Origin: an uncultured Desulfobacterales bacterium | GTDB lineage: Bacteria; Desulfobacterota; Desulfobacteria; Desulfobacterales; QNYZ01 | Reading direction: 5' to 3' | Assembly (NCBI GenBank): GCA_964577615.1 | Contig: CAZNZW010000002.1 | Coordinates: forward strand, 24,333 to 88,332 | Length of the DNA: 64,000 nucleotides | In this document: positions 3,008-60,867 of the stretch, one piece after another | Layout: the number at the start of each line of letters is the position of its first letter | Numbering within the stretch: position 1 is the first letter of the stretch | The notes under the pieces: model-generated | What the model saw: only the letters and a program-made list of their open reading frames with translations | Told to the model about the DNA's origin: nothing | Database searches by the model: none | Position numbers and translations under genes: made by a program

Positions 3008-3208
3008 TCAATTACTTACAGCGGCAATGATTTTCTGGGACTGCTGGATTAAATTCACGGCCTGCAGCTCGATTTCTTCCAGCTGCCTGCGGACGCGCTG
3101 GTCCAGATCTTCCCAGCTTTTGAATACCTGGCCGGTGGCCGCGCCGCCCACGTACACTTCCTTGTTGCGATTCATTTCAAGCTCACCGTTTCTGGCTTTG
3201 ATAATCAT
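3008..3208 (-). CDS. Small (66 aa) hypothetical protein, sigma-54-dependent by promoter prediction
   Basis: The ATG at 3208 has an SD (minus strand GAGAGGGAGcgctccATG). The C-terminal half 'EDLDQRVRRQLEEIELQAVNLIQQSQKII' looks helical or coiled-coil. A consensus sigma-54 promoter lies about 65 nt upstream. Confidence 0.5.
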   Translation of the reverse strand: MIIKARNGELEMNRNKEVYVGGAATGQVFKSWEDLDQRVRRQLEEIELQAVNLIQQSQKIIAAVSN

Positions 3209-3271: not shown

Positions 3272-3287
3272 AGCAAACTCCGTGCCA
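3272..3287 (-). promoter_or_regulatory. Sigma-54 (-24/-12) promoter
   Basis: The minus strand reads 5'-CTGGCACGGAGTTTGCTAC-3'. This matches TGGCACG-N4-TTGCW exactly, with correct GG/GC spacing. It lies about 65 nt upstream of the ATG at 3208. Confidence 0.6.
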
Positions 3288-5636: not shown

Positions 5637-6898
5637 GGTGTTTTTCTCCGCAGGTGTGCGGCCTGGGCTTCCGGCATCCAGACCCCCATTTGCTTGCCGG
5701 CGCGCGTGCTGAAAAACGAGGTGACCTTGCGGGTATTGTTGCGCCGGGCAATCGTCTGGGTGGCCCGGTTATCTTCGCTGATCAGGGAAAAAATGGGTCG
5801 ACCGTCGGCCCGGGCGGTGAGTGCCGCCAGCAGTTGGGTCGCGATACCCATCCCCCGGTACTCGGGTCGGACCGATGTGTACCCCCGTTCCAGATAATCG
5901 GACAGATCCAGACCGGTCTGTTCACTCAGAGCCGTGATATACTCGCGGCGGGGATGTTTGAGGCTGGAAACGGCTACCACCTGATCCAGTTCAGTCGCAT
6001 AGACAACCAGGAAAGCCCGCGTCAGATTATGCCGCATCCACCGGGTGCTCACGGAACCGCCGGCTTCGACCAGCTGGCAGATATCATCGAGGCGGGCGGC
6101 GGAAAGCGATTCGGGAGCGGCGGCCGGACGGGCAAAATGGCGCTGCATGTTTTCGCCAAGGGACACCACGCCCCGTGGCTGCTGCCGTACCCACCAGCGC
6201 CGGACGCGGACTGAGCCATAGGTGTCCAGATAGAGGAGCAGGTGCGCCGGCCCGGGCAGGGCGCGCCAGAACGGCCGGCCGGTAAGAAACGGCAGACGGG
6301 CGTGCTTTTCGGTCAGGGATTTGAAGGCAGCCTCCGGGCCTGGAAAACGGGCCGCGGCCGGCGTCGCCAATTGCCAGGAATGGACGATATTCGGATTGCC
6401 AATGGCAAAGCGCAGCAGGGCCGGGTCGGGATCCGATCCAGCGTCCGGGGGGAAAACCACGTGGTTCCAGATCCCGGCCTTTGCGTGCGCGCGCAAAATC
6501 CGGATCAGGCGGGGCAGCGGGCCACGCGGCGAGAGCCATTCGATGAGACGGATTCGGGACACGGAAACCGGCGCGTTGTCCGGGTCTGGGCCGGTATCAT
6601 CCAGCCGGACCCTCACCGCCAGCCCAGGGGCCGCCGATGGCAGTTCCAGCGCGGCATCAAGGGCGAGAACCTGGGCCCGGCTGAGCGGGGAAGACAGGTA
6701 TGCGGTTCCGATTTTCAGAAGCCGGGCCTGCGCCGTGATGTACGCGGCCGCGGATGTTGGCGAAACCGGCAATTCTGAAGGGTCATTTTCCGCAAAAACG
6801 GTCAAGACCCGTTCCAGTGACAGGGAGGGGAAATCGGGGGAAACCGGCGCCGGAGAGATTGGACGGATGTGAAGCGGGTGGTCTTCAAGCGGGTCCAT
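5633..6898 (-). CDS. Hypothetical protein with C-terminal GNAT acetyltransferase domain
   Basis: The C-terminal ~130 aa '...VVAVSSLKHP...RGYTSVRPEYRGMGIATQLLAALTA' carries the GNAT acetyl-CoA motif (R/Q-x-x-G-x-G/A). The ~270-aa N-terminal region is unrecognised. I prefer the ATG at 6898 with SD AGGGGGA over the TTG at 6904 used by the ORF track. Confidence 0.65.
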   Translation of the reverse strand: MDPLEDHPLHIRPISPAPVSPDFPSLSLERVLTVFAENDPSELPVSPTSAAAYITAQARLLKIGTAYLSSPLSRAQVLALDAALELPSAAPGLAVRVRLDDTGPDPDNAPVSVSRIRLIEWLSPRGPLPRLIRILRAHAKAGIWNHVVFPPDAGSDPDPALLRFAIGNPNIVHSWQLATPAAARFPGPEAAFKSLTEKHARLPFLTGRPFWRALPGPAHLLLYLDTYGSVRVRRWWVRQQPRGVVSLGENMQRHFARPAAAPESLSAARLDDICQLVEAGGSVSTRWMRHNLTRAFLVVYATELDQVVAVSSLKHPRREYITALSEQTGLDLSDYLERGYTSVRPEYRGMGIATQLLAALTARADGRPIFSLISEDNRATQTIARRNNTRKVTSFFSTRAGKQMGVWMPEAQAAHLRRKTP

Positions 6899-31682: not shown

Positions 31683-31743
31683 CCGCCAGGCGGTTTCGGG
31701 CGCGTGCGGGCGGCGGCAGAAGAAATACCGGCGGTAACCGGGA

Positions 31744-31781
31744 AAGGCCGCAATCCATGTGGATTGCGGCCTTTGGTGTTT
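31744..31781. terminator. Bidirectional intrinsic terminator hairpin
   Basis: Perfect 13-bp stem AAGGCCGCAATCC/GGATTGCGGCCTT with a 4-nt loop. It is followed by TTTGGTGTTT on the + strand and a T-run on the - strand. It lies between the AhpD-like gene and the 3' end of tRNA-Met. Confidence 0.7.
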
Positions 31782-31783
31782 AG

Positions 31784-31860
31784 TGGTGGCGATGCAGGGA
31801 TTTGAACCCCGGACACTGCGGATATGAGCCGCATGCTCTGACCACCTGAGCTACATCGCC
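31784..31860 (-). tRNA. tRNA-Met (anticodon CAU), elongator type; a lysidine-modified tRNA-Ile2 cannot be excluded
   Basis: The 77-nt minus-strand sequence is GGCGATGTAGCTCAGGTGGTCAGAGCATGCGGCTCATATCCGCAGTGTCCGGGGTTCAAATCCCTGCATCGCCACCA. It folds as a cloverleaf with a 7-bp acceptor stem, anticodon loop CTCATAT, GGTTCAAAT T-loop and encoded CCA. It lacks the initiator features (no GGG/CCC anticodon stem, and positions 1-72 are paired). Confidence 0.9.
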
Positions 31861-31963: not shown

Positions 31964-34909
31964 TTACCGGGCGACAGAGCGGATCACCTCAACGGAAAAT
32001 TCTTCGATGTCAGATGGCAGATTTGCAAAAACAATCATAAATGGCGCTGTTTTGCCAGGGGGCACTTTGAGACTGCCGGCGCCCGCTTTATTTGACAGGT
32101 TTTTCTGTATGTCGGCCAGGGCTTTGGTGCCCAGATCCTGATCAGAAAGGGAATTGCCGCAATAAACTGATCGGGCCTTGATCAGTTTTCCCCCCTTGGC
32201 AAAAATGTTGCCTTTGATCAGAATCGATCCCCGGGGCTGTTTGTACTGATTGAGCACTTTGCCGGTAATGACGAACAGCCGTCCCGAATTATTGCTGGTG
32301 ACGAACTTGCTGTCGATTCCCACTGTTTTCAGCTGCGCGTTACCCGGATCATTGGCCACCTGCTGCGTGCCGGCGCCCATCATGTTGCTCAAGTAGGGAA
32401 TTTTAATTCCCATCATATTGAATAGATACAGACCGCCCAGCAGCAGCGCTATGAGTAAAAGGGCAATCAATGACTTCCGGCTTTTCTTTTTTGGGAACGC
32501 GGCGTCTTCCACAACAGGGCCCAATGTTTTGGCTTCGGAGTCTTTGACGGGATCTAATTTCAGCCTGGCAGTTGTTTTGGATTCCTCCGCGGGTGACGTG
32601 CTGTCCAGAGGAGGCGGCCCGGCCGCGGCGGATTCAGCCGGCTTTTCGGCGCCTGTTTCAGCCTCGTCGGTCAGGGTCTTTTCCATTGCCATGTCAATGT
32701 CTTCGAAATCGAGGCTTCCGGATTCAATCGCCGGTTGACTTTTATTTACATCCGATAAATTTTCTTTGGAAGGCAGGTCCCCCGCTTTCGGGCTCTGGCT
32801 GTCTATCTCCAGATCTTCCAGGCTCAGGTCATCCATGCCCGGATCGGCCATTCCCTGGTCGCTCAGGCCCATATTTTCCACGGCCAGGGTATTGTTGTCT
32901 GCTTCCATGAGAGACTCATCGGTGACTTCCGCCGGCGCAAGCAGCTGGTCCAGAATGGGGAGGTCGATCTCGTCATCTTCGCTGTACCCGTCTTCCAGGT
33001 CGGGGCGTTCAAGGTTGACGTTAAGCACTTCCGCCTGTTTTCCCTTGTCAGTATCCAGCGTAATACTGACATCCTTGTCAAAGGCCTCTTTCGGGGCCGG
33101 GGCCACTTCTTCGATGTCTTCTATCTCAATATCCAGTGGCTCATCGGTATTGGGGGACTGGTCTTTGGCGTTTAACGGCGGTTCTGCCGGCTCGGCCGGC
33201 GCGGTGGCTTTCGGGCCAGGATCCAAATCCAGATCAAGCATGTCTACCTGTTTCGTATCCAGGCCAAACGCCTCATCCAGGCTTTCGTCTTCAAGGTCGT
33301 CAAAGTCCAGGTCAAGTCCTTCGATTTGCTGAGTGTCCAGAGAAATCTCCTCCGTGGATGGATCGGGTATTTCCGGGTCCAGCTGATCCAGTTCAAGGTC
33401 AAGATTCTTGATTTGTTTGGTGTCCAGGACGAAATTGTCATCCAGGACCTCGTCTTTACTATCCGGCTGTTCCGGTTCGAAATCGAAATCGATATCGTCA
33501 ATCTGTTCGGTACTCAGAATATCCTCTTCAGTAGAGCCCTCTGCTTCAGAAGCTTCGGGAGCGGCTTCGGGGATCTCCAGTTCTTCCAGCTGGATACCGA
33601 GATCGCTCAGTTGCTGTACTTCCGAGATGTTTTCTCCAGTGGCCGCCTCACTCGGCTGGGGAGGTATCTCTTCGATATTTTCCAGTTCTAAATCAAGGTC
33701 CTGAATCTGAATGGTGTCCAGATCGATATCACCGTCCAGTTCCACGTCTATATCCGGATGCTCAGGTTTGGATGCAGACAATTCTGATTTGAACATTTCA
33801 TCAAGTTCACCGTCAAGATCGGATAAGTCCAGCTCTTCGGATTCCACCTCATCGATCAGGCTGTCCAGCGCCATGCCAGGTTCACCGTCGAGATCCATTG
33901 ATTCCGATTCCGGTGCATCGCTTTTGTCGACAGACAAATCAGACATCTCATCGTTTCCGAGAATATTATCGAGTTTATCAGAAAGATCGCTAATTTCCTG
34001 ATCTTCTGTCGTCGTATCCATTGAATCGGTGTTTTGTGCTTCTTCGCTCAATGGCGCCGCCTGCGGCTTATGGGTATCGGGTCCCAGAAGCTCGTCAAGT
34101 CCGGCGGTCAGGTCAGCCATCTCAATATCTTCAGAATCAGTTAAAGATGCTGCCGCAGGGCCGGACGGCATGGCTTGTATTTCTGAATCAATGTCCTCAA
34201 GCTGGATTGAATCAAGGTCAATGCCGCCATCGGGTACTGGAGGTTCATCTCCCGCCCCATCAAGCTCGTCGCCAAGAGTAGACAGGTCCAGGACATCAAT
34301 GTCCGGATCATATCCTGCCGGGTCCGGTTCATTCGTGTCTGTCGCACTTTCCGCCAGGTCGCCGGATAACAGATCGAGGTCCTCATCGAGATCAGATAAA
34401 AGATCATCCTCTTCCTTCAGGCCGGGCTCTGCCATCCCTTTCGCCTGATCTGTTTCATCCGTTGCGGAAAGAAGATCATCCATCTCATCTGAACCAAGGA
34501 TTTTATCCAGTTCGTCAGTTAGATCGTGCATGGTCGGGTCTTCGGCCCCGCCGGTAGCCGGGGAGTCCAGGTGTTTCCCGTCCGTTGTTTCGTCCGATTG
34601 TGCGAATAGCGAAGCGGCGCCCGCCGCCGCTCCCAGTGTTCCACCGATCCCCGCTGCCAGATTCGATATTTTGCTGCCGCCGGGTTTTGCTGAAGACGCT
34701 GCATCGGGGACATCCGGTGTTGCCTCATCCGTCAGTTCCGTTCCGCTTGCCCGGGGCGACGGGGGGGGAGATTGGACATCTTCGGCAGAAGGGGGAAAGG
34801 CAACAAAAAGATGCTGGCATCTGGAGCATTTAACCCTGGACCCCGATGGCTTGATGCGGTCGTCATCAAGGAAATAATCCGTAGCGCACTGCTTGCAAGT
34901 AATGATCAT
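31964..34909 (-). CDS. Zinc-ribbon (MJ0042-type) / polyacidic repeat / single TM / DUF3426-like C-terminal domain protein
   Basis: The start is taken at MIITCKQC (ATG 34909, SD AGGAG). The zinc ribbon is 'CKQCATDYFLDDDRIKPSGSRVKCSRCQHLF' (CxxC-N19-CxxC). Over the next ~750 aa, about one residue in three or more is D/E by eye. The TM segment is 'SLIALLLIALLLGGLYLFNMMGI'. The last ~146 aa resemble DUF3426 ('GRLFVITGKVLN...PFMIVFANLP'). Confidence 0.85.
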   Translation of the reverse strand: MIITCKQCATDYFLDDDRIKPSGSRVKCSRCQHLFVAFPPSAEDVQSPPPSPRASGTELTDEATPDVPDAASSAKPGGSKISNLAAGIGGTLGAAAGAASLFAQSDETTDGKHLDSPATGGAEDPTMHDLTDELDKILGSDEMDDLLSATDETDQAKGMAEPGLKEEDDLLSDLDEDLDLLSGDLAESATDTNEPDPAGYDPDIDVLDLSTLGDELDGAGDEPPVPDGGIDLDSIQLEDIDSEIQAMPSGPAAASLTDSEDIEMADLTAGLDELLGPDTHKPQAAPLSEEAQNTDSMDTTTEDQEISDLSDKLDNILGNDEMSDLSVDKSDAPESESMDLDGEPGMALDSLIDEVESEELDLSDLDGELDEMFKSELSASKPEHPDIDVELDGDIDLDTIQIQDLDLELENIEEIPPQPSEAATGENISEVQQLSDLGIQLEELEIPEAAPEASEAEGSTEEDILSTEQIDDIDFDFEPEQPDSKDEVLDDNFVLDTKQIKNLDLELDQLDPEIPDPSTEEISLDTQQIEGLDLDFDDLEDESLDEAFGLDTKQVDMLDLDLDPGPKATAPAEPAEPPLNAKDQSPNTDEPLDIEIEDIEEVAPAPKEAFDKDVSITLDTDKGKQAEVLNVNLERPDLEDGYSEDDEIDLPILDQLLAPAEVTDESLMEADNNTLAVENMGLSDQGMADPGMDDLSLEDLEIDSQSPKAGDLPSKENLSDVNKSQPAIESGSLDFEDIDMAMEKTLTDEAETGAEKPAESAAAGPPPLDSTSPAEESKTTARLKLDPVKDSEAKTLGPVVEDAAFPKKKSRKSLIALLLIALLLGGLYLFNMMGIKIPYLSNMMGAGTQQVANDPGNAQLKTVGIDSKFVTSNNSGRLFVITGKVLNQYKQPRGSILIKGNIFAKGGKLIKARSVYCGNSLSDQDLGTKALADIQKNLSNKAGAGSLKVPPGKTAPFMIVFANLPSDIEEFSVEVIRSVAR
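33221..33727 (-). repeat. In-frame coding repeats inside the polyacidic protein
   Basis: Four copies of a ~16-aa motif x-LDT-x-Q(I/V)-xx-LDL(E/D)(L/F)D: 'IDLDTIQIQDLDLELE', 'FVLDTKQIKNLDLELD', 'ISLDTQQIEGLDLDFD' and 'FGLDTKQVDMLDLDLD'. A degenerate copy 'IDLDSIQLEDIDSEI' lies further N-terminal. A second duplicated motif is 'DLTDELDKILGSDEMDDL' / 'DLSDKLDNILGNDEMSDL'. Confidence 0.6.
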
Positions 34910-34994
34910 GTTAAGCTCCTGTGAAAGAATCGAGCGAATAAAACACAAATATCGGTGTGTCCGGCATTAAAAAATATTAATCAGGCTAGCAACA

Positions 34995-35010
34995 AGCAAT
35001 ATGCATGCCA
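34995..35010 (-). promoter_or_regulatory. Sigma-54 (-24/-12) promoter upstream of the polyacidic protein gene
   Basis: The minus strand reads 5'-TATGGCATGCATATTGCTTG-3', i.e. TGGCAT-N5-TTGCT. This is one mismatch to TGGCAC, with correct GG/GC spacing. It lies about 85 nt upstream of the ATG at 34909. Confidence 0.55.
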
Positions 35011-35114
35011 TAACATAAAAAGGATGGGCCGTATTTCCTGGTACAGGCAAAAAAAGCGTCAATATTTGTATTGTACAAGGCTTTTATAATACATCAACCA
35101 GACAAAATAGTTTG

Positions 35115-35178
35115 TAACGCCAAGAAATAATTGACTAAAACCAGATATCCGGTTGACCCGTCCATGACCTTGGCGTTA
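35115..35178. promoter_or_regulatory. 10-bp perfect inverted repeat pair (candidate enhancer/UAS for the sigma-54 promoter)
   Basis: TAACGCCAAG (35115-35124) and CTTGGCGTTA (35169-35178) are exact reverse complements separated by 44 nt. They lie about 105-170 bp upstream of the -24 element, where bEBP sites usually sit. Confidence 0.3.
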
Positions 35179-35446
35179 GAGCCACATAAAAGCGATATTG
35201 CCGATCACGGCACCCATTGCCATTTTCTCAATCAATATATATTAATAAAAACACTTCTTTGTCTTCTAAAGCAACAATGGCGGGATTTGTCAAATTAATT
35301 TTATGACCGGCGCGCATGCGTCAGCCGCTCTCCAGGGGGGGGATAAAAGAGATAATTTTCCTTACAATCCAAATTTTGTCTTTCCGAATACAATATCCGT
35401 ATTGATTTTGGGAGAAAGGTGCCGCCGGGTTATTCGTCGCAGCCCG

Positions 35447-36364
35447 TTAAAGGCCTGTTTCTGATAATTTTTTAACAAGTTCTGTCTGCAGCTCGGATAG
35501 CTTTGCAGGAATATCCACGTTGATTTTAACAAACAGATTGCCCCGGCGATCCGTATTCATGATCGGCAACCCCTGGCCTGCCAGGCGCATCTGGGTCTGG
35601 TGTCGGGTACCGGCCGGAATTTTAAGCCGTTTTTCACTGCCGTCCGGCGCTTGAATGGTGACATGGGTGCCCAGCAGAGATTCAGTCAGGCGGATGGTGC
35701 GGTTCAAATAAAGATCGGTCCCCTTGACGGAAAAATCAGGATCGGGTGTCATCCGGGCTTTAATATACAGATCCCCGGCCGGGCCGCCGTATGCGCTCGG
35801 TTCGCCCTTGCCCGCCAGGCGCAGTTTTTTTCCGGTAATCATGCCTTTGGGGACTTTGACGGTTAAATTTTCCGACCGTCCGTTGTGCTGAAAATTGATG
35901 TTCTTTCGGGCCCCGCTGAGTACTTCCGCCAGCGTCAGGGGCAGTTCATAGACCAGATCCGTCCCTTTGGCCGGGGCCTGCCGTGATCGGCCACAGCCTC
36001 CCATATTTCCAAAAGGATGGTTCCGGCCACCGCCGGAGGTAAACCGGAAGCCGCCCGGTTTTCCGCCGCCAAATCCGAATTCACGAAAAATATCGCCGAA
36101 ATCAAAATTACGGAAAATATCTTCCTGGGAATACCGCTGCTGGAATCCGCTGGAACCAAAAGTATCGTATTGCTGCCGCTTTTCCTTATCACTTAGCACC
36201 GCATATGCTTCGCTGATTTCTTTGAATTTTTCTTCCCCGGATTTGTCGCCCTTGGTGTGATCGGGGTGGTATTTCATCGCCAGTTTGCGATATGCTTTTT
36301 TAATTTCATTTGCAGATGCGTTTTTCTCAACGCCTAGCGCTTTATAGTAATCTGAGCTGGCCAT
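35447..36364 (-). CDS. cbpA: DnaJ-class co-chaperone without zinc-finger domain (CbpA-like)
   Basis: The start is taken at [12 protein letters not shown] (ATG 36364). The J-domain is '[31 protein letters not shown]' (HPD). A G/F-rich region and a DnaJ C-terminal domain follow. There are no CxxCxGxG repeats. Confidence 0.8.
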
Positions 36365-56634: not shown

Positions 56635-57513
56635 TTAATTACGGTTAATATCCCGATGCGTGACCACGACTTCGCGATCCGGACGGGCAATATGCGTGTA
56701 TACTTCCTGCGCAATGACCACTGACCGGTGGTGGCCGCCGGTACATCCAATGGCAATCGTCAGGTACGCCTTTCCTTCTTTTTTATATAATGGCATCAGA
56801 TAGTCAAGCAAATCCAGATAGCGGGCCATAAATCGGCTGGTCTGGGCGTCTTGCAGGACGAATGATTTCACCTGCTCGGCCGTGCCGGTCAGGGGCCTGA
56901 GCACCGGATCAAAATAGGGGTTCTTTAAAAAGCGGACATCCATAATATGGTCGGCATCATGGGGGATGCCATGCATGAAACCAAATGACATAATATGGAT
57001 ACGCATGGGAATGTCAATGTTGTGGGCCCGGGCAATCTGCTGGATAACGCTTTTCAGGTCGTGCACCGTATATCGACTGGTGTCGATAATCCGGTCCGCT
57101 TCATTTTCCAGGTGGCGCAATTGTTTTTTGTCTGCCTCGATACTCGCCAGAAGGTTGGTCCCGTCGTGAAACGGATGGTGCCGCCGGGTTTGACTGTAAC
57201 GCTGCATCAGGGTTTCGGTGTCTGCGCAAAGGAAAAGCAGGGTGAACGCAAACCCCTGTGTTTTCAGATTGCGGATAATATTCTGGTATGAATTGAGGAA
57301 ATTTTTTTCCCGTGAATCCATGACAAACGCGTAGCCCTTGGCCGTCAATCCCCTGCTTGTAATCAGTTCTGTAAATTTAGGTAAAAGGGCCATCGGCATA
57401 TTGTCCACACAATAGAAACCGGTGTCTTCCAGGGCCGCGAGTGCGGTGCTCTTCCCGGAACCGGCATGGCCGGTGATGATAATGAACTGCAGTGATTCGG
57501 AAGGCGAGGGCAC
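56635..57513 (-). CDS. rapZ: RNase adapter protein RapZ (YhbJ)
   Basis: 292 aa with Walker A 'GHAGSGKST', 'DVRFLKNPY' and C-terminal 'IGCTGGHHRSV'. Confidence 0.9.
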   Translation of the reverse strand: MPSPSESLQFIIITGHAGSGKSTALAALEDTGFYCVDNMPMALLPKFTELITSRGLTAKGYAFVMDSREKNFLNSYQNIIRNLKTQGFAFTLLFLCADTETLMQRYSQTRRHHPFHDGTNLLASIEADKKQLRHLENEADRIIDTSRYTVHDLKSVIQQIARAHNIDIPMRIHIMSFGFMHGIPHDADHIMDVRFLKNPYFDPVLRPLTGTAEQVKSFVLQDAQTSRFMARYLDLLDYLMPLYKKEGKAYLTIAIGCTGGHHRSVVIAQEVYTHIARPDREVVVTHRDINRN

Positions 57514-57516
57514 CGG

Positions 57517-57975
57517 TTAAAAATCCTCATCGCTGGACTGGATAACCGTGTATACTTCATCGGCATTCCGGGCGTTTATCAACGCCTGACGGAACAGGTC
57601 GTTTTTTAACAGCCGGGAAATCCGGGCCAGGAGCTTGAGGTGCAGGCCGGCGGCCTCTTCGGGCGCCAGGAGGAGAAAGAAAATGTACGTCCGTTTGCCG
57701 TCAATGGATTCGAAATCGACGCCTTTGCGGCTCAAGCCAACCCCCATCACAAGGGAAGGCAGGCCTTTCAGTTTGCCGTGGGGAATACCGATGCCATTGC
57801 CGATACCCGTGCTTCCCAGCCGTTCGCGGCTCATGATGCCCTCTACCAGGGTGTTTTGATCCGTATGCGTCAGCTGCGCAATGGGGGTGATTAATTCCTC
57901 GATCACCCCCATCTTGTCCGTTGCTTTCAAATCGGTGACAATGGCTTCTTTTTTCAGCATGTCTAACAGTTTCAT
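57517..57975 (-). CDS. ptsN: Nitrogen-related PTS EIIA (EIIA-Ntr)
   Basis: 152 aa. 'ERLGSTGIGNGIGIPHGK' contains the active-site His. The gene order rpoN-hpf-ptsN-rapZ supports the call. Confidence 0.85.
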   Translation of the reverse strand: MKLLDMLKKEAIVTDLKATDKMGVIEELITPIAQLTHTDQNTLVEGIMSRERLGSTGIGNGIGIPHGKLKGLPSLVMGVGLSRKGVDFESIDGKRTYIFFLLLAPEEAAGLHLKLLARISRLLKNDLFRQALINARNADEVYTVIQSSDEDF

Positions 57976-57982
57976 GGGGAAA

Positions 57983-58510
57983 CTACCTGTTGGGTTGAAT
58001 CAGTCCAAAGTCTCCGTTTTTGCGCCGGTATAATACATTAACCGTTTCGCTGCGGGCATCCGTAAAGACGAGGAAATTATCTTTGATTAATTCTAACTGC
58101 ATGATCGCCTCTTCGATGTCCATGGGCTTGTATTCGATGGACTGGACGACGATGCGCTGGGCGGTTTCGGGTGCCGCCGGGGCTTCTTCGGTGAGCGCCT
58201 GTATTTTTCCCCGTCGCTGGCCTTTATGGTCACGGACCTTTTCCCTGTTTTTCTTGATCTGAATATCTAATTTGTCCATCACTTTATCGATGGAAGAGTA
58301 CATATCCTCGGTTTCTTCCTTACCCATTATATTTAAACGGTCACCGATAATGTTAATCTCTGCCGTGTGACGAAATTTTTCCACGGAAAGAACGACATTG
58401 GCACTGGCCGGATTGTCCAGATATTTATCGAATCGATCCAGTTTCGAGCTGACGTAATTCGACAGATGGTCTGATGGTTCGATTTTTTTAAAAGTAACAG
58501 ATGTTTGCAT
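57983..58510 (-). CDS. hpf: Ribosome hibernation promoting factor (long HPF)
   Basis: The start is taken at MQTSVTFKKIEPSD (ATG 58510, SD AGGAGG); the 273-aa track ORF is an upstream extension. It has an S30AE domain and a C-terminal dimerisation domain 'VVQSIEYKPMDIEEAIMQLELIKDNFLVFTD'. Confidence 0.9.
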   Translation of the reverse strand: MQTSVTFKKIEPSDHLSNYVSSKLDRFDKYLDNPASANVVLSVEKFRHTAEINIIGDRLNIMGKEETEDMYSSIDKVMDKLDIQIKKNREKVRDHKGQRRGKIQALTEEAPAAPETAQRIVVQSIEYKPMDIEEAIMQLELIKDNFLVFTDARSETVNVLYRRKNGDFGLIQPNR

Positions 58511-58712
58511 GCAGGCCTCCTTTTTATTAAAGAAACAGTTTAAGGGTGCGCCTAACGGGGGTGAGACAGTGTTTTTGTTCCTGGGTTGCCAGTTGACTGT
58601 ATCGGGTGGTCTGGGAAAATATCGAAATACGCCGGGCCTTTCTGCGCAATGAGGTTTTAACCGATGCGCGTCGGAGGATTGGAATCGGTCATTCATGCAG
58701 GCGCATGATGGA

Positions 58713-60140
58713 TCAACAAAGCTGTTTGCGTTTGCTCGATGGTAAAATATTAAGCAGTTCCCGGTATTTTGCAACTGTCCGTCTGGCAATATTGATGTTG
58801 TCATTTTCTAAGATTTCGCAGATTTTCTTGTCGCTGTATGGTTTTTTCGGGTTTTCCGATTCAATAATATGTTTGATTTTATCTTTGACGCTGGCCGAAG
58901 CAATCGCCTCGCCATGAAATCGATTGATGGGACTGTTGAAAAAATACTTCAACTCGAAAATGCCCTGGGGCGTGTATGCGTATTTGTTGGTTGTGACGCG
59001 GCTGATTGTTGATTCATGCATCTCAATATCTTCGGCCACATCCCGCAATACCATCGGTTTTAGGTGGCCGACGCCCTTTTCGAAAAAATCCCGCTGAAAA
59101 CGCAGAATGCTTTCCATGACCCGGTAAATGGTTTTTTTCCGCTGGTAAACGCTTCGGATGAGCCAGGTGGCCGAGCGAAGTTTTTCGCGGATATACTCTT
59201 TTTCCTTGCCTGATACCTGGTCGGCTCCCGTGAGACATCTGCGATAAAGCGCATTGATCCTCAATCGGGGCAGGCCGTTATCGTTGAGCAGGATGACGAA
59301 TTCGTCGTCGTATTTATAAACATGCACATCGGGCGTGATGTGTCGCGGCGGTTCATCTGAATATAGCCGCCCCGGTTTGGGTTCCAGCCCCTGGATGATC
59401 TTAACGGCCTGCAGTACCTGCTGGCGATCGGCGCCGAGCGCCCGGCAGATGGCGGTGATGTTCCGGTTTTCGAGATTTGTCAGGTGGTGCGAAATAATAT
59501 CTTCCACCAGGCTGTTTTCCAGCCCCAGGTGTCTGGCCTGGATCAGAAGCGATTCCGGCAGATTGCGGGCGCATATGCCCAGTGGATCGAACCGCTGCAT
59601 TAAGCCGAGCACCTGCTCGACGGTTTCCGGTGACGTGGTGACCAGCCCGGCAATTTCATCCACGGAGACATCCAGATACCCATCGGCAGTCAGGTTTCCC
59701 ACAATCAGACTGCCGATTTCTTTTTCCAGGTCACTGGGGCCGGTCATCATCAGCTGCCAGAGCAGGTGGTCCTGCAGGGATTGTTTTTTAACCAGAAAAC
59801 GGTCAAATTCAGTATGCTCCCGCCGCTCGATTTCATAACTGGTCCGGCCGGGGGTGTTGTATTCATCGATAAAATTACGCCAGTCGACGTCGTCGGGGAT
59901 ATTGCCGTCAAACTCGACTTCATCCGGGCCTTTTGTTTCAGCGGTCTCGGATTCTTTCTTAACCGGTTGTATTTCTTCCTCAACAGCTTCTTCGAGTACC
60001 GGATTCTCCTGCAGTTCCTGCTGAATTGTTTCCATCAGCTCCAGGCGGGATAACTGCAGAAGTTTAATCGCCATCTGAAGCTGGGGCGTCATCACCAGCT
60101 GCTGGGTCAGTTTGAGTTGTTGTCTGAGTTCAAGAGCCAT
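58713..60140 (-). CDS. rpoN: RNA polymerase sigma-54 factor
   Basis: 475 aa. Region I is 'LKLTQQLVMTPQLQMAIKLLQLSRLEL', followed by an acidic region II. The RpoN box is 'ARRTVAKYR'. Confidence 0.95.
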   Translation of the reverse strand: MALELRQQLKLTQQLVMTPQLQMAIKLLQLSRLELMETIQQELQENPVLEEAVEEEIQPVKKESETAETKGPDEVEFDGNIPDDVDWRNFIDEYNTPGRTSYEIERREHTEFDRFLVKKQSLQDHLLWQLMMTGPSDLEKEIGSLIVGNLTADGYLDVSVDEIAGLVTTSPETVEQVLGLMQRFDPLGICARNLPESLLIQARHLGLENSLVEDIISHHLTNLENRNITAICRALGADRQQVLQAVKIIQGLEPKPGRLYSDEPPRHITPDVHVYKYDDEFVILLNDNGLPRLRINALYRRCLTGADQVSGKEKEYIREKLRSATWLIRSVYQRKKTIYRVMESILRFQRDFFEKGVGHLKPMVLRDVAEDIEMHESTISRVTTNKYAYTPQGIFELKYFFNSPINRFHGEAIASASVKDKIKHIIESENPKKPYSDKKICEILENDNINIARRTVAKYRELLNILPSSKRKQLC

Positions 60141-60141
60141 T

Positions 60142-60867
60142 TTATGATAACCGAAATTCGTCCCCTAAATAGATACGTCTGGCGGTTTCGCTGGCGGCGA
60201 TCTTTTCCGGAGATCCGGATTCGATGACTTTTCCATCACTTAAGATGTAAGCCTTGTCGCAAACCGTCAAGGTTTCCCTGACGTTGTGGTCTGATATCAG
60301 GGTACCGATGCCACGATCTTTCAAATGTCCGATGATTTTTTTAATGTCGATGACAGCCAGCGGATCAATCCCGGCAAAGGGCTCATCCAGCAGCATGAAG
60401 GCCGGATTCGTGACCAGGGCCCGTGAAATTTCCAGCCGGCGTTTTTCACCGCCGGACAGCACGGCGGCTTTCTGGCTTCCCAGATGTTTGATACCCAGCT
60501 CTTCAAGCAGCTGATCGGCTCTCTTTTTCTGATCGGCACCGGACAGCGGCATGGTTTCAAGAATGGCCAGCAGGTTCTGGCGGACAGTGAGTTTTCGAAA
60601 AATGGATGTTTCCTGGGGCAGATAGCCGACCCCTTTGCGGGCCCGCTGGTACATGGGGTTATCGGTTATATCCACGTCATCGAAAAAAACCTGGCCGCTA
60701 TCGGGCCGAATCATGCCGATGCTCATGTAGAACGTTGTTGTTTTCCCGGCGCCGTTGGGCCCCAGAAGGCCCACAACACGTCCGCTCTCTATATCCATGT
60801 TGACGGAATCGACCACGCGGCGTCCGCCATAGGTTTTCTGAAGGTTTTTTAATGCGAGCCGGTGCAC
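60142..60867 (-). CDS. lptB: LPS export ABC transporter ATP-binding protein LptB
   Basis: 241 aa with 'GPNGAGKTT', 'LSGGEKRRLEISRAL' and 'LLDEPFAGIDP'. It lies between lptA and rpoN. Confidence 0.9.
   Translation of the reverse strand: MHRLALKNLQKTYGGRRVVDSVNMDIESGRVVGLLGPNGAGKTTTFYMSIGMIRPDSGQVFFDDVDITDNPMYQRARKGVGYLPQETSIFRKLTVRQNLLAILETMPLSGADQKKRADQLLEELGIKHLGSQKAAVLSGGEKRRLEISRALVTNPAFMLLDEPFAGIDPLAVIDIKKIIGHLKDRGIGTLISDHNVRETLTVCDKAYILSDGKVIESGSPEKIAASETARRIYLGDEFRLS

Follow-up and report, generated by a model that had tools for sequence, protein, structure and literature searches.

A ZitP-type zinc ribbon and DUF3426 protein with a long acidic, motif-bearing linker in Desulfobacterales, a possible bitopic membrane scaffold

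Proteins that organise the cell pole or the envelope are known from the alpha-proteobacteria (PopZ, ZitP), the gamma-proteobacteria (HubP, FimV), Myxococcus, and Gram-positive bacteria. The present analysis deals with a gene for a membrane protein of 981 amino acids found in 64,000 nucleotides of DNA, here called the window, from an uncultured Desulfobacterales bacterium (contig CAZNZW010000002.1). The protein carries an N-terminal MJ0042-type zinc ribbon, a very long acidic linker, one transmembrane (TM) helix, and a C-terminal DUF3426 domain. A literature search revealed nothing comparable described for the Desulfobacterales, and no description of the acidic DUF3426/MJ0042 subfamily. The parts are known, namely the end domains of ZitP, an acidic tether of the HubP kind, and a sigma-54 promoter; the combination, a defined linear motif, and a turnover of promoters are new.

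ZitP (zinc-finger targeting the poles, CC_2215) of Caulobacter crescentus consists of a zinc ribbon (residues 1-37), a linker of only ~68 amino acids, a TM helix (residues 106-127), and a DUF3426 domain (residues 128-245), and the functions of the zinc ribbon and of DUF3426 are separable (PMC5182063, PMC5182065). PopZ, a protein of the polar matrix, is bound by the zinc ribbon through W35 and a patch of basic residues, K18, R24, R27, and R34 (PMC5182065), and the periplasmic DUF3426 domain recruits CpaM for assembly of the Cpa pilus (PMC5182063, PMC5182065). An earlier note on this DNA had described the architecture as known but uncharacterised, which is wrong, as the order zinc ribbon-TM-DUF3426 is that of ZitP, studied both genetically and structurally (PMC5182063, PMC5182065).

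Two other systems resemble the linker or its relation to the zinc ribbon. HubP/FimV proteins of Vibrio, Shewanella, and Pseudomonas are bitopic and have an unstructured acidic cytoplasmic region with 25% aspartate plus glutamate (D+E), a pI of ~3.5, and imperfect repeats, whose length and repeat number vary even between related species (PMC12918733). In GltJ (AgmX) of the Myxococcus xanthus gliding machinery, the zinc ribbon binds an 18-residue motif (L86-L103) of its own disordered linker, from which it is displaced by MglA-GTP (PMC11135422).

The features of the window gene and its end domains are as follows.

31964-34909, minus strand: coding sequence, 981 amino acids plus stop (zinc ribbon, acidic and predicted disordered linker, TM helix, DUF3426), from Pfam, NCBIfam, the ribosome-binding site, and the orthologue N-terminus
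34916-34920, minus strand: ribosome-binding site AGGAG, 7-11 nucleotides (nt) 5' of the ATG
34790-34909, minus strand: MJ0042-type zinc ribbon, residues 1-40, predicted cytoplasmic (C5, C8, C28, C31), from Pfam, NCBIfam, alignment with 2NB9 and 7ZOK, the AlphaFold2 model, and the family logo
32495-34789, minus strand: polyanionic, predicted disordered linker, residues 41-805 (~765-770 amino acids), from composition and the AlphaFold2 model
32414-32479, minus strand: single TM helix, residues 811-832, from hydrophobicity and the AlphaFold2 helix
31967-32344, minus strand: DUF3426 beta-sandwich, residues 856-981, six strands and two short helices, periplasmic by topology, from Pfam and the AlphaFold2 model

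The open reading frame (ORF) finder called a gene of 994 amino acids with a TTG start (31964-34948, minus strand). The correct start is best read as the ATG at 34909, giving 981 amino acids, because of the AGGAG upstream of it and of the N-terminus MIITC(K/E)QC, common to all orthologues. The public gene call of one orthologue, P0004 from locus L005, is truncated at its N-terminus: the called start is at position 6001 of that locus and the conserved ATGATCATTACCTGTAAGCAATGCGCC start, hence the zinc ribbon, is at 5896, 105 nt upstream.

In Pfam, residues 1-37 matched Zn_ribbon_4/5 (E 5e-13) and residues 814-975 matched DUF3426 (E 2.6e-12), and NCBIfam gave a match to the MJ0042_CXXC domain. The CxxC-N19-CxxC pattern corresponds to C5, C8, C28, and C31, positions shared with both the ZitP ribbon (2NB9; gapless alignment, E 1.9e-9) and the GltJ/AgmX ribbon (7ZOK; E 1e-6); by these alignments the ribbon is shown to be homologous, residue for residue, to those of ZitP and GltJ. 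In an AlphaFold2 model built with a 51-sequence alignment, the ribbon consists of beta strands with a predicted local distance difference test score (pLDDT) of 92-95, and the C-terminal domain (residues 856-981) is a confident beta-sandwich with a pLDDT of ~96. The only hydrophobic segment comprises residues ~811-832 and is preceded by KKKSRK, so that the positive-inside rule predicts an N-in, C-out topology; with a single N-in TM helix before it, DUF3426 is therefore placed in the periplasm, as inferred from this rule and from ZitP (PMC5182063). A profile search of the PDB with the DUF3426 alignment gave chance matches only (E>0.3), and a Pfam scan of 25 C-terminal domains (E<=1) found no recurring model except DUF3426. 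The length, cysteine pattern, single TM helix, beta-rich C-terminal domain, domain order, and N-in topology given in the earlier note were all confirmed by Pfam, NCBIfam, hydrophobicity, and the AlphaFold2 model. On the periplasmic side of the membrane a motif (I/V)(K/R)IPY(L/I)SD occurs once in the window protein, as GIKIPYLSN (residues 834-842), and in two to three tandem copies in some homologues, such as P0092 (residues ~660-700, IRIPYISDIKIPYLSDLDVKIPYLSDW).

The likeness to ZitP thus includes the N-terminal MJ0042/Zn_ribbon_5 domain with four cysteines at identical positions, an aromatic residue at position 35, a basic one at position 27, and one TM helix, after which DUF3426 forms a C-terminal domain placed in the periplasm. 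The ribbon of the window protein has F35 and the basic residues R18, K20, R25, K27, and R30. It differs from ZitP in having F35 for W35, S24 for R24, and L34 for R34, whereas R18 and K27 are present. Beyond the cysteines, conservation among 202 family members was 99% for F35 and 0% for W35, 100% for G23, 93% for K25, 90% for R27, and 83% for K20. The ~770 residues of the acidic linker make it eleven times longer than the ~68 residues of ZitP. Further differences are that the ZitP partners PopZ and CpaM are alpha-proteobacterial and that ZitP is under cell-cycle control, sigma-54 control not being described in the cited ZitP papers. To judge from the unkept W35, R24, and R34 and the far longer linker, the window protein is not a simple ZitP orthologue. 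A PopZ N-terminal helix was considered as an analogue of the linker motifs and dropped, as ZitP does not use the N-terminal 26 residues of PopZ.

With HubP/FimV the protein shares a bitopic design, a small periplasmic domain, a long and unstructured stretch of acidic repeats that varies in length, and, at the end far from the membrane, a small domain for client binding (PMC12918733). The topology is opposite, the periplasmic domain is DUF3426 instead of LysM, and the distal domain is a zinc ribbon instead of the FimV TPR domain. Pfam and NCBIfam searches of the window protein (E<=1) gave zinc-ribbon models, a weak N-terminal GltJ match, and DUF3426 only, with no LysM or FimV model; membership in HubP/FimV was rejected, as neither the N-terminal LysM-like domain nor FimV's TPR domain at the C-terminus is present, and the similarity is one of design, not of homology. 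Several family members are labelled 'FimV' in the JGI annotation. GltJ/AgmX is alike in being a membrane protein that begins with an MJ0042 zinc ribbon, after which comes a disordered linker, but the window protein has no GYF domain and a different C-terminal part. Membership in GltJ (the NF033761 equivalog) was rejected, the match reaching 26.4 bits against a cutoff of 450 bits and covering residues 1-92 only.

The linker sets the protein apart from ZitP in length. Residues 41-810 comprise 16.5% D, 12.6% E (29% D+E), 11.8% L, and 4.7% K+R, with a net charge of about -188, and the AlphaFold2 model gives nearly all of residues 49-805 a pLDDT of <50, without secondary structure, which agrees with the earlier suggestion that the acidic chain is probably disordered. 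The acidity is widespread. In the 120 best homologues, a TM helix was found in 119, and all 119 carry an acidic linker of 314-838 amino acids with 24-45% D+E. Since a search with the full protein might be biased by its acidic query, a separate exhaustive search was made with residues 800-981 only against 1.84 billion representatives, giving 2254 matches at E<=1e-3; with the threshold at E<=1e-10, there were 1470 representative clusters. Among the best 150 of this search, 83 full-length zinc-ribbon proteins were newly retrieved; every one of the 83 has an acidic linker, of 118-788 amino acids (median 424) and 20-47% D+E (median 35.6%). The organisms are Desulfobacterales wherever the sources give names. 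By these comparisons an acidic linker characterises the family as a whole and is not peculiar to the window gene; the earlier view that the acidic expansion was the unusual part is not supported. That note had also held that its reading would fail if the linker were hypervariable, with neither length nor composition conserved: composition proved to be conserved, whereas length (118-838 amino acids, about seven-fold variation) did not.

Specific sequences are also kept within the linker. Alternating hydrophobic-acidic pentads (hDhEh) occurred 1704 times across the family versus 149 expected from composition-matched shuffles, and a motif of the type ELDLSDLExxL 530 times versus 3.8 expected; the latter is present in 182 of 205 full-length members, with at least three copies in 97. 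Its sharper consensus is (E)LDLS(D)L(E)x(M/L)L(D/E), with D in 99% at +1 and S in 92% at +3, and it is retained in a relative from Desulfatirhabdium (L002), in which the N-terminal half of the linker is lysine-rich and much less acidic. From its sequence the motif reads like an N-capped amphipathic helix (S-x-x-E, then hydrophobic residues at i, i+3, and i+4), and we take it to resemble the LD motifs of eukaryotes.

Across eight aligned orthologues, the whole linker was 30-45% identical to that of the window protein, the zinc ribbon 60-90%, and the C-terminal domain 61-68%; identity reached 57-78% for a 63-residue island at residues 606-668, which at the sequence level is conserved as strongly as the folded domains. 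AlphaFold2 confidence for this island was low, and a homology search with residues 583-670 gave no match. Other near-invariant islands in the eight orthologues are ELDKI(L/F)G, LDLSxLxDE, IDLDTIQI, and the LDTxQI repeats; these near-invariant blocks are confined to the sub-clade of the window protein (9-11 of 254 proteins, depending on the block). Judged by its family-wide motif and conserved islands, the linker is not junk. The elements located in the window protein are listed below.

34472-34528, minus strand: MHDLTDELDKILGSDEMDDL motif, residues 128-146, ELDKI(L/F)G invariant in eight orthologues, from the orthologue alignment
34262-34291, minus strand: LDLSTLGDEL, residues 207-216, copy of the family-wide ELDLSDLExxL, from the family motif count
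33935-33994, minus strand: ISDLSDKLDNILGNDEMSDL, residues 306-325, second copy of the ELDKILG-type motif, from a hidden Markov model match at 303-322
33803-33832, minus strand: LDLSDLDGEL, residues 360-369, second copy of the family-wide ELDLSDLExxL, from the family motif count
33224-33721, minus strand: four LDTxQIxxLDL(E/D)(L/F) repeats, residues 397-562, sub-clade-specific, at 397, 495, 524, and 550
32906-33094, minus strand: conserved island in the disordered region, residues 606-668 (63 amino acids; …AEVLNVNLERPDL…IDLPILDQLLAPAEVTDESL), from the eight-orthologue alignment

The internal repeats noticed earlier (four to five xLDTxQIxxLDLELD copies and a duplicated segment) were recovered as four copies plus a degenerate one at residue 232, together with the duplication, in which DLTDELDKILGSDEMDDL (residues 128-146) recurs as DLSDKLDNILGNDEMSDL (residues 307-325). 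By eye, residues ~124-243 and ~303-410 resemble a duplicated module of ~110 amino acids. Tandem Repeats Finder detected no meaningful tandem repeat at the DNA level. A mildly hydrophobic, Gly/Ala-rich patch, LAAGIGGTLGAAAGAASLF, lies within the acidic linker at residues 85-103 (~34601-34657, minus strand), and the linker of the L001 orthologue has a comparable patch, LAAGIGAASAAAAALAG, at a different position.

Upstream of the gene, the following elements bear on its transcription.

34995-35010, minus strand: putative sigma-54 -24/-12 element TGGCATGCATATTGCT, ending 85 nt before the ATG and conserved in orthologous loci
Same element in the sub-clade: TGGCATGCATATTGCT in the window; TGGCACAAGTTTTGCT in L001; TGGCACAACTTTTGCT in L004, L005, and L006; TGGCATAATTATTGCT in L028 and L029
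35263-35293, minus strand: inferred sigma-70-like promoter P1, TTGACA at 35288-35293 followed by TTTAGA or TAGAAG, and A/T-rich sequence upstream of it, from the conserved -35 region
35115-35124 and 35169-35178, no strand assigned: 10-bp inverted repeat TAACGCCAAG/CTTGGCGTTA, real, arms 44 nt apart
58713-60140, minus strand: rpoN (sigma-54; AID, CBD, and DBD domains), complete, from domain matches

The window element, on the coding strand, has the -24 GG and the -12 GC of the sigma-54 pattern TGGCAC-N5-TTGCW. The TGGCAY-N5-TTGCW pattern occurs twice in the window versus 0.19 expected, and the scaled chance expectation of one on the right strand of a region of ~540 nt is about 1e-3. The element was found in 7/7 sub-clade loci, 85-111 nt upstream of the ATG, at overall protein identities of 38-51% and with flanking DNA that no longer aligns; it was absent in 5/5 distant loci (L007, L008, L009, L030, and L031). 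The trans factor needed by such a promoter, RpoN, is encoded in the window in a canonical lptB-rpoN-hpf-rapZ cluster (56635-60867, minus strand; ABC_tran, Sigma54 AID, CBD, and DBD, S30AE, and RapZ domains).

Just 3' of the dnaJ-like gene, the -35 region of P1 is conserved in every family locus, the family form being TTGACA-N17-TAGxxx. In the window it reads AAAATTAATTTGACAAA…TTTAGA at ~35263-35300, and equivalents are TTGACA-17-TAGATT in L007 and TTGACA-17-TAGCAT in L008, with others in L009, L030, and L031. P1 would be an ancestral sigma-70-like promoter, older than the sigma-54 element, which in other lineages would drive an operon of an hpt-like gene and the zinc-ribbon gene; in the sub-clade, the sigma-54 element sits downstream of P1 in a leader of 540-730 nt. 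The gene had been called sigma-54-driven, and this stands insofar as the element is conserved throughout the sub-clade and rpoN is present, but the element is sub-clade-specific and a family-wide sigma-70-like promoter lies upstream, so that the description probably tells only half the story. The inverted repeat, earlier placed where an enhancer would be, is a real pair without significance: a perfect inverted repeat of at least 10 bp within 100 nt arose in 158 of 2000 dinucleotide-preserving shuffles of the intergenic region (7.9%, p~0.08), and six orthologous loci contained no counterpart. It is probably not part of the system.

Taken with ZitP and HubP/FimV as models, the protein may be a bitopic inner-membrane scaffold of the ZitP type, hub-like in the manner of HubP/FimV, a function inferred by analogy to which we would give about an even chance. 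The periplasmic DUF3426 would anchor the protein to an envelope partner, or recruit one, as ZitP DUF3426 recruits CpaM. The zinc ribbon, through a conserved basic face (K20, K25, and R27 in the family) and the invariant F35, would bind an acidic or linear-motif ligand. Because the ZitP ribbon binds PopZ and the GltJ ribbon binds an 18-residue motif of its own linker, motifs of the protein's own linker are candidate ligands, and EELDLSDLDGELDEMF, HDLTDELDKILGSDE, and residues 606-668 are candidate peptides. The long acidic tether might offer cytoplasmic clients a number of docking motifs, much as the acidic repeats of HubP/FimV would, in the opposite orientation. In this sub-lineage, transcription would start from the sigma-54 promoter, ~75 nt upstream of the ATG, a promoter presumably gained in a sub-clade without hpt at the locus, downstream of the ancestral sigma-70-like promoter. 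The roles suggested earlier, such as a cation buffer, a DNA mimic, or a ruler, would suit the protein less well than a scaffold that bears motifs, given the conserved hydrophobic-acidic motifs of the linker and its roughly seven-fold variation in length.

Several observations weigh against a motif-bearing, ZitP-type scaffold. The PopZ-binding determinants of ZitP are only partly kept (F35, S24, L34). To our knowledge, PopZ is reported only from alpha-proteobacteria. Its absence from Myxococcus has been reported (PMC11135422). AlphaFold2 gives the linker motifs no helix or contact (pLDDT <50) and supports no stable contact between zinc ribbon and linker, and the unconserved linker length argues against a precise structural role; the strongly acidic composition might be the only property of the linker under selection. 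No gene for a GAFTGA-containing bacterial enhancer-binding protein was found in the 64-kb window, no conserved enhancer-like dyad was identified upstream of the sigma-54 element in six orthologous loci, and no pilus, flagellar, chemotaxis, or partition genes were found within 10 kb or among the larger window ORFs scanned.

Selection on acidity would suit a device that works through charge only, a membrane-tethered polyanion with an electrostatic or entropic job, in which the motifs are by-products of the expansion of D/E/L-rich repeats; it might serve as a buffer or store of Mg2+, Ca2+, Fe2+, or polyamines, or, as an entropic bristle, hold nucleoid and ribosomes off a patch of membrane. Every family member keeps 20-47% D+E while length and sequence drift, the linker has no structure in the AlphaFold2 model, and repeat expansion is evident, as in protein P0007, where about five tandem copies of a unit of roughly 30 amino acids can be read. 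By-products of this kind would hardly exceed composition-matched shuffles ~140-fold with specific residues kept (D at +1, S at +3), nor would a 63-residue island be conserved like the folded domains; moreover, 12% leucine is atypical of a pure polyanion, the Desulfatirhabdium relative retains the motif amid sequence that is K-rich and far less acidic, and the neighbourhood scan found no adjacent metal-handling genes. We consider an explanation by charge alone unlikely.

A second alternative concerns control of the gene and not the scaffold itself: TGGCAT-N5-TTGCT may not be a working sigma-54 promoter, the upstream sigma-70-like promoter alone giving rise to an mRNA with a long leader. The family-wide conservation of the TTGACA-based promoter after the dnaJ-like gene speaks for this, as do the lack of the sigma-54 element in distant homologues and the negative results for an enhancer-binding protein gene in the window and for a conserved upstream dyad. 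Against these stand the retention of the 16-nt element in 7/7 loci despite 38-51% protein identity and unalignable flanks, its distance to the ATG, which stays within 85-111 nt, the chance expectation of about 1e-3, and the presence of rpoN, which make a non-functional element quite improbable and the sigma-54 promoter likely to be real.

Weakest is the proposal of a plain ZitP orthologue, its end domains acting alone in Tad/Cpa-type pilus biogenesis or in motility and its linker a neutral expansion, since, although it shares both end domains and their order with ZitP, which has separable zinc ribbon and DUF3426 functions with a ~68-residue linker (PMC5182063, PMC5182065), a neutral insert would neither stay acidic in 83/83 full-length representatives nor carry conserved motifs and islands, the W35, R24, and R34 needed for PopZ binding are not kept, and pilus genes were not found in the scanned parts of the window, all of which leaves it very improbable.

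The neighbourhood of the gene is of a housekeeping kind and follows a recurrent order across the loci examined: mnmG (GIDA), a dnaJ/cbpA-like gene, in some loci hpt, the zinc ribbon/DUF3426 gene, and tRNA-Met. GIDA-DnaJ precedes the zinc ribbon/DUF3426 gene in 9/9 loci with enough upstream sequence. The upstream neighbour in the window (35447-36364, minus strand) encodes a CbpA-type J-protein with DnaJ and DnaJ_C domains and without a zinc-finger domain match, and its adjacency to the zinc ribbon/DUF3426 gene holds throughout the family, at every locus with enough upstream sequence. An hpt-like phosphoribosyltransferase gene lies directly upstream of the zinc-ribbon gene in four of five distant loci, with a 4-nt overlap in L007. 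The coordinates of the hpt-like genes are given here.

L007, 4468-5004: hpt-like gene
L008, 4463-4984: hpt-like gene
L009, 4462-4983: hpt-like gene
L031, 5427-5984: hpt-like gene

The hpt gene is absent at this position in the sub-clade of the window (34910-35446 in the window) and in L030, and tblastn found no hpt relic in the intergenic region of the window. A housekeeping neighbourhood without pilus or flagellar genes neither supports nor excludes a role in polarity. The context of an origin of replication near mnmG was considered and set aside, there being no skew inflection.

Between the dnaJ-like gene and the sigma-54 promoter lie two noncoding blocks, A (~35360-35408, minus strand) and B (~35228-35305, minus strand), which keep 85-98% identity in L001 and L004-L006, against only 43-51% for the flanking proteins. 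TGT-N10-ACA and AGACAAA repeats occur in block A, and block B contains the sigma-70-like -35 region and the first ~40 nt downstream. Are blocks A and B regulator sites? Rfam searches of the intergenic region and of the whole window found nothing but tRNA, with no match for either block, and a metagenome DNA scan with the invariant 21-mer of block B gave 17 chance matches without flanking similarity or a zinc ribbon. About 30 nt of the 5' untranslated region just upstream of the ribosome-binding site (TTTTATTCGCTCGATTCTTTCAC; 34921-34950, minus strand) are almost invariant in the five closest loci, and no consensus RNA structure of this region was found across seven loci. A second perfect sigma-54-type element, TGGCACGGAGTTTGCT, occurs at 3272-3287 (minus strand), 64 nt upstream of an ORF of 66 amino acids (3008-3208, minus strand).

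Downstream, a tRNA-Met gene (CAT anticodon; 31784-31860, minus strand) has its own promoter-like site, TTGACT-17-TAGATA, and is not the initiator because of its G1-C72 pair. In 10 of 11 loci, such a gene is found 60-230 nt downstream of the zinc ribbon/DUF3426 gene and shares its strand (L001, L004, L006-L010, L028, L030, and L031). A bidirectional terminator with a 14-bp stem follows at 31743-31774, 3' of the tRNA-Met. The metagenome contig L010 is 99.96% identical to the window and diverges a few bases past the 3' end of tRNA-Met (window 31779, L010 13131), beyond which it carries a DUF6538/phage-integrase gene, a DNA_pol_B_2-like gene of 875 amino acids, and a second integrase; this resembles an integrative element situated at the tRNA of a sister strain. 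A DUF6538 integrase is found at the same place in the distant homologue locus L009.

A more far-reaching proposal, and a long shot, is that the family is the Desulfobacterota counterpart of PopZ/HubP in a single polypeptide. The basic and aromatic face of each zinc ribbon would bind ELDLSDLExxL motifs of neighbouring chains; as each chain would offer a single receptor and several ligands, and would also cluster through the TM helix and DUF3426, a multivalent network or condensate tethered to the membrane might form. Such a network could keep the nucleoid out and give order to a pole or an envelope machine, and its abundance in this sub-lineage would be set by a sigma-54 activator.

The family is large, with its 1470 representative clusters, and resides in a conserved housekeeping neighbourhood. 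The locus shows promoter turnover, in which an ancestral sigma-70-type hpt-zinc ribbon operon appears to have been joined, in the sub-clade without hpt here, by a sigma-54 promoter. A receptor domain of the ZitP type and an acidic tether like that of HubP, with a linear motif that is sharply defined, are joined in one protein and provide concrete peptides and point mutants for testing. If it is true that the zinc ribbon binds the motif, the intramolecular switch of the GltJ type would apply to MJ0042 proteins far more broadly.

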